A stretch of 11,924 nt of DNA from a virus (Duplodnaviria > Heunggongvirae > Uroviricota > Caudoviricetes): the IMG/VR virus record IMGVR_UViG_2526164647_000012; one strand, written 5' to 3'. The translations under genes were made by a program, and so were the position numbers. Shown one piece after another: positions 8,421 through 9,767 of this stretch. Within the stretch, counting starts at the first letter, position 1, and every line of letters begins with the position of its first letter. The notes below the pieces were generated by a model. The model was not told where the DNA came from. It ran no database searches and saw only the letters and a list, made by a program, of their open reading frames with translations.

Positions 8421-8526
8421 TATACTAACGAATCCCACACTCTGGCAAATTACCACCACCTCTACAGGAGGTGGTTCTATATAGACTTTTATCAACTTCA
8501 TGACGAAAAACACCTATTTGAAGTGG

Positions 8527-9366
8527 TCAACAAAAACTGGCCACCGAGTTAGAGTTTTTCCAGTATCGATTTTCCGATTCGTTTGGGGGTAACCCACCGT
8601 TATATTCGTGCGGTCTTAGTGCACTGTAATATCCAACGATATAGTCCGTTATGGCGTGAGCTGCCTCGCTGAAGCTTACGTAACCCACCACCGGCATCCA
8701 TTCGTTCTTCAGACTCCTGAAGAAGCGTTCCATTGGGCTGTTATCCCAGCAGTTTCCGCGCCGGCTCATACTCTGTCTGATCTGGTATCGCCACAATAAC
8801 TGCCGGAACTGCCTGCTCGTATAATGACTGCCCTGATCGCTGTGGAACATCACCCCGCCGGGCTTACCACGGGTTTCCCATGCCATTTCCAGCGCTTTCA
8901 TGGTGAGCCTGCTGTCCGGCGAGAACGACATGGCCCAGCCCACTGGTTTTCTTGCGAACAGGTCGAGAACAACGGCGAGGTACGCCCAGCGCTTACCCGT
9001 CCAGATATAGGTCACATCACCGCACCACACCTGATTTGGCTCGGTCACGGCGAACTGCCTTTCAAGGTAGTTAGGGATAGCAACATGTTCATGACCACCA
9101 CGTTTATACCGGTGAGTCGGCTGCTGACAGCTGACCAGCCCCAGCTCTTTCATGAGCCTGCCAGCAAGCCAGCGTCCCATCTGGTAGCCTCTCCGGGTTG
9201 CCATTGTGGCGATGCTTCTTGCTCCGGCCGAACCGTGGCTGATGCCATGTAGCTCAAGTACCTGACTGCGTAATACAGCCCGTCTGCCGTCTGGTTTTTC
9301 AGGACGGTTTTTCCAGTATCTGTAGCTGCTGCGATGAACCCCGAACACATGGCAGAGTGTGACCAC
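8527..9366 (-). CDS. IS911 transposase OrfB (DDE catalytic part, expressed as OrfAB by -1 frameshift)
   Basis: 279-aa ORF with IS3-family DDE region ...[13 protein letters not shown]...[10 protein letters not shown]...[15 protein letters not shown]... Confidence 0.85.
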
Positions 9367-9392
9367 AGGATAATGCGCTCTGAGTTTCCCGA

Positions 9393-9695
9393 TTATCGAG
9401 AACTGTTCAGGGAGTCTGACATCAAGAGCGCGGTAGCCTTTTTTAATATTTCATTCTCCATTTCAATGCGTTGTAGCTTTTTCCTGAGCTCACGGATTTC
9501 AATTTGTTCCGGGGTAATGGGGGAGGCTTTTGGTGTTTTGCCCTGACGCTCATCACGCAGTTGTTTGACCCATCTTGTCATTGTGGAAAGGCCAACATCC
9601 ATAGCTTTGGCGGCATCTGCCACCGTGTATTTCTGGTCAACAACCAGTTGAGCGGATTCGCGTTTCAACTCTGCGCTAAAATTTCTTTTTTTCAT
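9393..9695 (-). CDS. IS911 OrfA (HTH/leucine-zipper transposase subunit)
   Basis: [51 protein letters not shown]...[19 protein letters not shown]; start at internal Met of the track ORF. Confidence 0.85.
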
Positions 9696-9767
9696 TGGAG
9701 CACCTGTGTTGTTCTGAGGTGAGCATATCACCTCTGTTCAGGTGGCCAAATTCAGTGTGCCACTTCA

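Follow-up and report, generated by a model that had tools for sequence, protein, structure and literature searches.

An IS911 copy lacking a target-site duplication most likely marks an IS-mediated deletion between asnT and shiA in the Shigella flexneri lineage

The stretch of DNA analysed here (the window; 11,924 nt) contains a copy of IS911 (8519-9767, minus strand, 1249 bp) between sequences of different origin. Its left neighbour is the first 98 bp of the intergenic spacer between the integrase gene and ybtS of the Yersinia HPI (8421-8518, plus strand), and its right neighbour is an internal fragment of the shikimate transporter gene shiA (9768-10257, plus strand; Pfam MFS families), so that the left breakpoint falls after 8518 and the right breakpoint before 9768. 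This arrangement raises the question of which event joined the two flanks through one IS, and of what lay between them beforehand.

The element itself is complete. It begins with TGAAGTGGTCAAC and ends with GTGTGCCACTTCA, and 1249 of its 1249 bases align end to end and ungapped, at 99.0% identity, with annotated E. coli copies (labelled "IS3-like element IS911 family" by PGAP). Its orientation is minus, IRR being on the left (8519-8554) and IRL on the right (9732-9767). The terminal inverted repeats (TGAAGTGG...CCACTTCA) are imperfect, matching at 24 of 36 positions and running from 5'-TG to CA-3', and the termini are the same as those of five E. coli copies. The orfA frame (9393-9695) encodes an OrfA of 100 aa; OrfAB (8527-9695) is open over 389 aa with a -1 frameshift at the slippery sequence A AAA AAG (9438-9444), differs by 2 aa from the product of one E. 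coli copy, and carries the Pfam domains HTH_Tnp_1 (HTH) and rve (DDE). Full-length near-identity, terminal inverted repeats and the orfA/orfB frameshift thus all identify a member of IS911 (IS3 family), and the copy is full-length and apparently functional. As a separate observation, nine substitutions within 37 bp (9486-9522, positions 968-1004 of IS911 counted from the IRR end) separate the window copy from the E. coli alleles; most sister copies carry the patch of the window type, and the copy at the same locus of CP026871.1 (locus L006) has the E. coli allele, a pattern that suggests gene conversion between IS911 copies or variants.

On the left, the sequence from 6900 to 8518 matches the left end of the HPI of E. 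coli S6 at 99.26% identity without a gap, and the breakpoint lies 98 bp past the integrase stop codon and 95 bp short of the 3' end of ybtS. In place of IS911, the intact HPI reads TTATCCCAAAAG at this point, the spacer being contiguous with L001 up to 9897. The start of a Yersinia HPI, an island that inserts into the 3' end of asn tRNA genes, is recognizable: asnT, the tRNA-Asn(GUU) gene that serves as the attachment site of the island (6921-6996, plus strand, found by ARAGORN), adjoins a P4-type integrase gene (7158-8420, plus strand; Pfam Phage_integrase, with the same 99.26% ungapped DNA identity to the S6 integrase gene), and the position of asnT relative to mtfA matches that in K-12 and in HPI-positive E. 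coli. The cargo ybtS-ybtX-ybtQ-ybtP-ybtA-irp2-irp1-ybtU-ybtT-ybtE-fyuA is absent from the window, and the HPI sequence here is a remnant, not an island. Comparison of translations with the intact S6 integrase reveals two lesions, a start codon changed from ATG to ATA and a stop codon in place of Trp104, both of which are common to eight sister genomes; since the integrase is a pseudogene in these genomes too, the remnant would be unable to excise by itself. An S. flexneri intB sequence had already been included in an HPI integrase phylogeny in 2010 (PMC2801613).

On the right, the sequence from 9768 to 10257/10258 corresponds to shiA nt 624-1113/1114 of 1317 in reference orientation, at 100% identity to the shiA of E. 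coli AR_0085 and TUM9803, with G9768 as the third base of codon 208. The shiA piece is about 491 bp long, and its right end is cut by IS600 (10258-11520, plus strand).

A simple IS911 insertion generates a target duplication of 3 bp (sometimes 4 bp), and its flanks are contiguous in the empty site. The window copy departs from both expectations: the outer flanks are ATT on the left (8516-8518) and GGT on the right (9768-9770), or TATT and GGTA when four bases are considered, and in HPI-positive E. coli 35.8 kb separates the two flanking sites. Short direct repeats were sought up to 15 bp from either end, and none of at least 3 bp abuts both ends of the element. Control IS911 copies with identical termini do carry 3-bp duplications (GCG/GCG in L027, ATA/ATA in L029), and the related ISEc52 within ybtS has a 4-bp duplication, AAAG/AAAG. 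Because the control copies share the termini and show their duplications, a cryptic target-site duplication (TSD) that would emerge with corrected boundaries or shifted ends is excluded, the direct-repeat search at both ends agreeing. The sole ambiguity of the boundaries is T8519, which can be counted as part of the IS or of the island, T being present at this position in both. A decayed duplication is likewise excluded, since each flank matches its native sequence up to the end of IS911. The initial annotation of this DNA had described a complete IS911 with ATT and GGT flanks and no 3-4 bp repeat, with island DNA downstream of the integrase on its left and an internal codon of shiA on its right. 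Alignment, repeat search and control copies confirm the first of these statements and leave no cryptic TSD, the 99.26% match to the left end of the S6 HPI bears out the second, and the third is made precise by the match that begins at the third base of codon 208.

What separates the two flanking sites can be read from E. coli relatives. The order in E. coli K-12 is serU-mtfA-asnT-yeeJ-yeeL-shiA-amn. In HPI-positive E. coli S6, asnT is followed by int-ybtS-ybtX-ybtQ-ybtP-ybtA-irp2-irp1-ybtU-ybtT-ybtE-fyuA, a yeeJ remnant, a yeeL homologue and shiA, and 35,786 bp separate the two breakpoints, or about 34.5 kb when the 1.25-kb ISEc52 in ybtS is left aside. Sister chromosomes of the S. flexneri lineage read asnT-int'-IS911-'shiA'-IS600-'shiA-amn-yeeN-yeeO-cbl-nac-ldtA-cobT, a collinear backbone. 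Because both flanks of IS911 are in reference orientation and the backbone in the sisters is collinear, the geometry is that of a deletion, not of an inversion: one intact IS is flanked by sequences from two separate, collinear and co-oriented ancestral sites, as expected of a deletion scar. The initial annotation had relied on a K-12-like backbone in which asnT precedes yeeJ, yeeL and shiA, and the K-12 order agrees, shiA indeed lying downstream of asnT; its further proposal, that IS911 marks the loss of the island cargo, yeeJ-yeeL and the 5' part of shiA, is supported by the geometry, with the lost content deduced from E. coli relatives.

We therefore consider it very probable that this IS911 is the scar of an IS-mediated deletion in an ancestor of the S. 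flexneri lineage that carried the HPI at asnT. In such an ancestor, asnT would have carried an HPI of E. coli type, with yeeJ, yeeL and shiA beyond it. A copy of IS911 would have arrived at one of the two breakpoints, either in the int-ybtS spacer or at shiA nt 621-623, and about 35 kb between the breakpoints, comprising the HPI cargo, yeeJ, yeeL and the first half of shiA, would then have been lost. The loss could have followed either of two routes. In route (a), a second IS911 in direct orientation would have inserted at the other breakpoint, and homologous recombination would have occurred between the two copies, each with its own duplication (ATT and GGT, respectively); in route (b), the transposase would have driven an adjacent deletion from a single resident copy, joining one IS end to a distant site. 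The product is the same in both cases: one intact IS with flanks from different sites and thus no TSD. We assign the two routes roughly equal weight. The lack of TSDs has been put down to just these processes, inter-copy recombination or adjacent deletion, with the IS3 family included (PMC11708052). The pre-deletion state, be it an ATT-duplicated IS911 in an intact HPI or a GGT-duplicated one in an intact shiA, turned up neither in 5,426 complete E. coli genomes nor in the fetched S. flexneri-lineage loci. As no pre-deletion genome was found, the route and the number of steps are what we infer from the product, just as the presence of the full ybt/irp/fyuA cargo and of yeeJ-yeeL among the lost DNA is deduced from E. 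coli relatives.

To place the event in time, we consider the distribution of the two junctions. Loci of relatives (designated L with a number) were retrieved through exact matches to three proteins, namely the product of the integrase C-terminal ORF, the ShiA fragment and the Q protein; these led to chromosomes of 4.4-4.7 Mb, and the scan for IS911 junctions covered these loci with the exception of L037. Both junctions could be read directly, and are identical, in L006/L016, L014, L017-L019, L021-L023, L031, L033, L035 and L038-L040. One base is inserted beside the left IS911 end in L020, and in L032 and L036 the left junction alone is present within the 20-kb locus. Among the sequences concerned, CP044152.1 and CP026799.1 (AR-0425 and NCTC 9728) are named S. 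flexneri in PMC9455713, and LR213452.1 (AUSMDU00008355) is named Shigella flexneri in PMC9376355. The window is 99.5-99.9% identical to CP026871.1, on which basis we place it in the S. flexneri lineage. Neither junction occurs in the 5,426 complete E. coli genomes, and an exact-pattern scan for the left junction in species-representative genomes, among which Shigella is probably not separately represented, gave 0 matches. Identical junctions in S. flexneri-lineage chromosomes, together with their absence from E. coli, indicate that the deletion is old and fixed in the genomes sampled. As to the two loci with the left junction alone, the IRL end was found within neither L032 nor L036; L032 (CP055138.1) has at 900-2408 a group II intron reverse transcriptase gene (RVT_1, GIIM) where IS911 and the shiA fragment would be expected, probably an intron inserted in IS911, and no such gene was seen in L036.

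Two derived arrangements are seen at this locus. In L015 (UAUS01000001.1, 8373-9981), the junction between IRL and shiA is unchanged, and the IRR end abuts IS66-family tnpA DNA from 9.6 kb further left. This new left-flank DNA keeps the same orientation, and 10 sister genomes have it uninterrupted; a further, one-sided deletion has removed the prophage remnant along with serU, mtfA, asnT and the HPI integrase from that place. Judged from L015, this IS911 copy would be one that keeps producing deletions. In L031 and L033 (CP058589.1 and CP034931.1; reverse strand, 17700-20684), a further IS911, in direct orientation to the first, lies 545 bp to the right, 55 bp into IS600, so that the shiA fragment stands between two direct IS911 copies and the two-copy state is seen to exist. 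Relatives at this very locus thus illustrate both processes, one-sided deletion (L015) and the presence of two direct copies (L031/L033). A more specific reading, in which the scar records a pathoadaptive loss of the complete yersiniabactin island and the YeeJ adhesin gene, brought about by the IS911 transposase and not by RecA, with the same copy still deleting in L015, we regard as unlikely.

Three other explanations of the junction have to be weighed against an IS-mediated deletion. The first is an inversion or translocation, in which recombination between two IS911 copies would have moved the HPI cargo, yeeJ-yeeL and the 5' part of shiA elsewhere in the chromosome together with a reciprocal hybrid IS911. 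A deletion leaves no reciprocal junction, and a search of other IS911 copies for the matching half-site flanks can therefore detect only an inversion or a translocation. Such an event predicts two reciprocal junctions, one of shiA (...CATCGTACTGGT) with an IS911 end and one of an IS911 end with ATT-TTATCCCAAAAG of the HPI, that is, GCATCGTACTGGT+TGAAGTGG and CCACTTCA+ATTTTATCCCAAAAG. IS copies are sites of heavy rearrangement in Shigella chromosomes (PMC7373316), and the IS600 of the window has already exchanged its right flank for IS66-family DNA, both of which lend this explanation some plausibility. However, an inversion between inverted copies would have placed reverse-complemented DNA at the right flank, whereas what lies there is shiA sequence from downstream of the break, in reference orientation and followed in the sisters by the collinear backbone. 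The HPI is, moreover, reported to be rare in EIEC and Shigella (PMC7545054), and no ShiA fragment ending at codon 208 was found, a weak negative: the best 120 matches listed from a clustered database included no N-terminal fragment (residues 1-208) with read-through into IS911, and the ShiA fragments on Shigella-sized contigs among the matches listed are broken at other codons. Relocation of the missing DNA is on these grounds highly improbable.

About as improbable, in our judgement, is a single-step capture of IS911, without a TSD, at the double-strand break of a deletion already under way from another cause. Capture of this kind at a DNA break has been put forward for IS5 and IS481 (Ngan et al. 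2024, PMC11708052), where the product has the same appearance as here, with an IS central to the deletion, no TSD and no second copy seen; and at the new left breakpoint of L015, too, none of the sister genomes has an IS911. The proposal is, however, itself an unproven hypothesis, and in the same study an IS had occupied the position beforehand in 14 of 14 IS150-associated deletions of the long-term evolution experiment. In L015, moreover, the additional loss started from an IS911 that was already resident, consistent with adjacent deletion from such a copy. Finally, a simple insertion with decayed duplication or miscalled ends, or a mis-assembly across repeated IS, is a general possibility only, IS repeats being a common cause of mis-assembly, and can be dismissed given that the flanking loci are 35 kb apart in the reference and each native up to the IS end, that the ends of IS911 are validated by TSD-bearing copies, and that identical junctions recur in more than a dozen independent chromosome-scale assemblies.

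The IS-mediated deletion that we favour has close counterparts. In the E. coli long-term evolution experiment, deletions associated with IS150, another member of the IS3 family, likewise leave an intact IS at a TSD-less deletion junction, and they extend step by step from a copy already resident (Ngan et al. 2024, PMC11708052), much as L015 has lost a further 9.6 kb from the IRR end. Unlike those deletions, the event described here took place in nature, is old and has become fixed in a lineage of pathogens, and for the 35-kb event the resident-copy stage is unobservable. A second counterpart lies at the same locus in E. coli AR_0085 (L002, 9511-10278) and TUM9803 (L003), where the same interval (HPI cargo, yeeJ and yeeL) has been lost and a complete TSD-less IS joins the HPI integrase region to the shiA region. 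There, the element is an IS1 of 768 bp lacking its 9-bp duplication, the breakpoints lie at nt 972 of the integrase gene and, on the shiA side, 45 bp upstream of the start codon, and shiA is intact, in contrast to the IS911 scar. To judge from the sequences, this loss of the same interval is independent and convergent.

The scar also fits the wider picture of IS-driven genome reduction in Shigella, in which five IS, IS911 and IS600 included, have expanded in all Shigella, much of this expansion came before S. flexneri diversified, and deletions and rearrangements are mediated by IS copies (Hawkey et al. 2020, PMC7373316); a scar at asnT-HPI-shiA that is shared across the lineage is in line with this account. 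The excerpted text of that article makes no mention of the asnT-HPI-shiA scar, and a search of the literature, which was not exhaustive and drew on such excerpts, found no mention of it either. As an event, the scar is an ordinary, well-understood and already known kind of IS-mediated deletion, and it leaves the understanding of IS911 and of IS-mediated deletions unchanged. Its interest lies in what it records, namely that the left end of the HPI, and presumably the whole yersiniabactin island, once stood at asnT in the S. flexneri lineage and that the island was then lost through IS activity, a small addition to the genome reduction driven by IS in Shigella. It also provides a clean, datable marker, with junctions that are identical across the lineage and derived variants in single strains.

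A different junction closes the window on the right. Here, IS600 gives way to an internal stretch of an IS66-family tnpC (11521-11924, plus strand; Pfam DDE_Tnp_IS66, profile positions 29-158 of 284, E = 7.5e-45) that is foreign to the shiA locus. IS600 lacks a TSD in the window (ATG on the left, ATA on the right), and the same IS600 in sister genomes has a 3-bp ATG/ATG TSD, with the 3' end of shiA and then amn next to it. The junction between IS600 and tnpC was found in none of the fetched loci, and it marks a second, strain-specific rearrangement. We considered an inversion with the IS600 of a neighbouring IS66-family element as the source of this right flank and rejected it, because the window tnpC runs uninterrupted across that insertion site (CTC duplication, L034) and is broken 142 bp upstream of it; with tnpC intact at that site, the partner IS600 lies elsewhere. 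Since the right flank of IS600 has been replaced in this strain, multi-step histories of the locus are possible.

To the left of asnT, the window comprises mtfA (5984-6820), serU (5840-5929) and, adjoining serU, a DUF4224 gene with a frameshifted phage integrase gene (about 4631-5812), preceded by the late-regulatory part of a lambdoid prophage (1 to about 4620) with genes for Q, RusA, DUF968 and Hok and four tRNA genes. This serU prophage is without its entire early region (the exonuclease, kil, dicB, Rha and repressor genes, which are present in E. coli relatives). At the join (about 4621-4633), one prophage context stops at 4621 and the match to the DUF4224-integrase end starts at 4631-4633, with no IS between them. 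The four tRNA genes (Gly-UCC, Thr-UGU, Lys-UUU and Met-CAU) form a cluster on the minus strand at 324-633, within the prophage remnant and downstream of the Q antiterminator gene.
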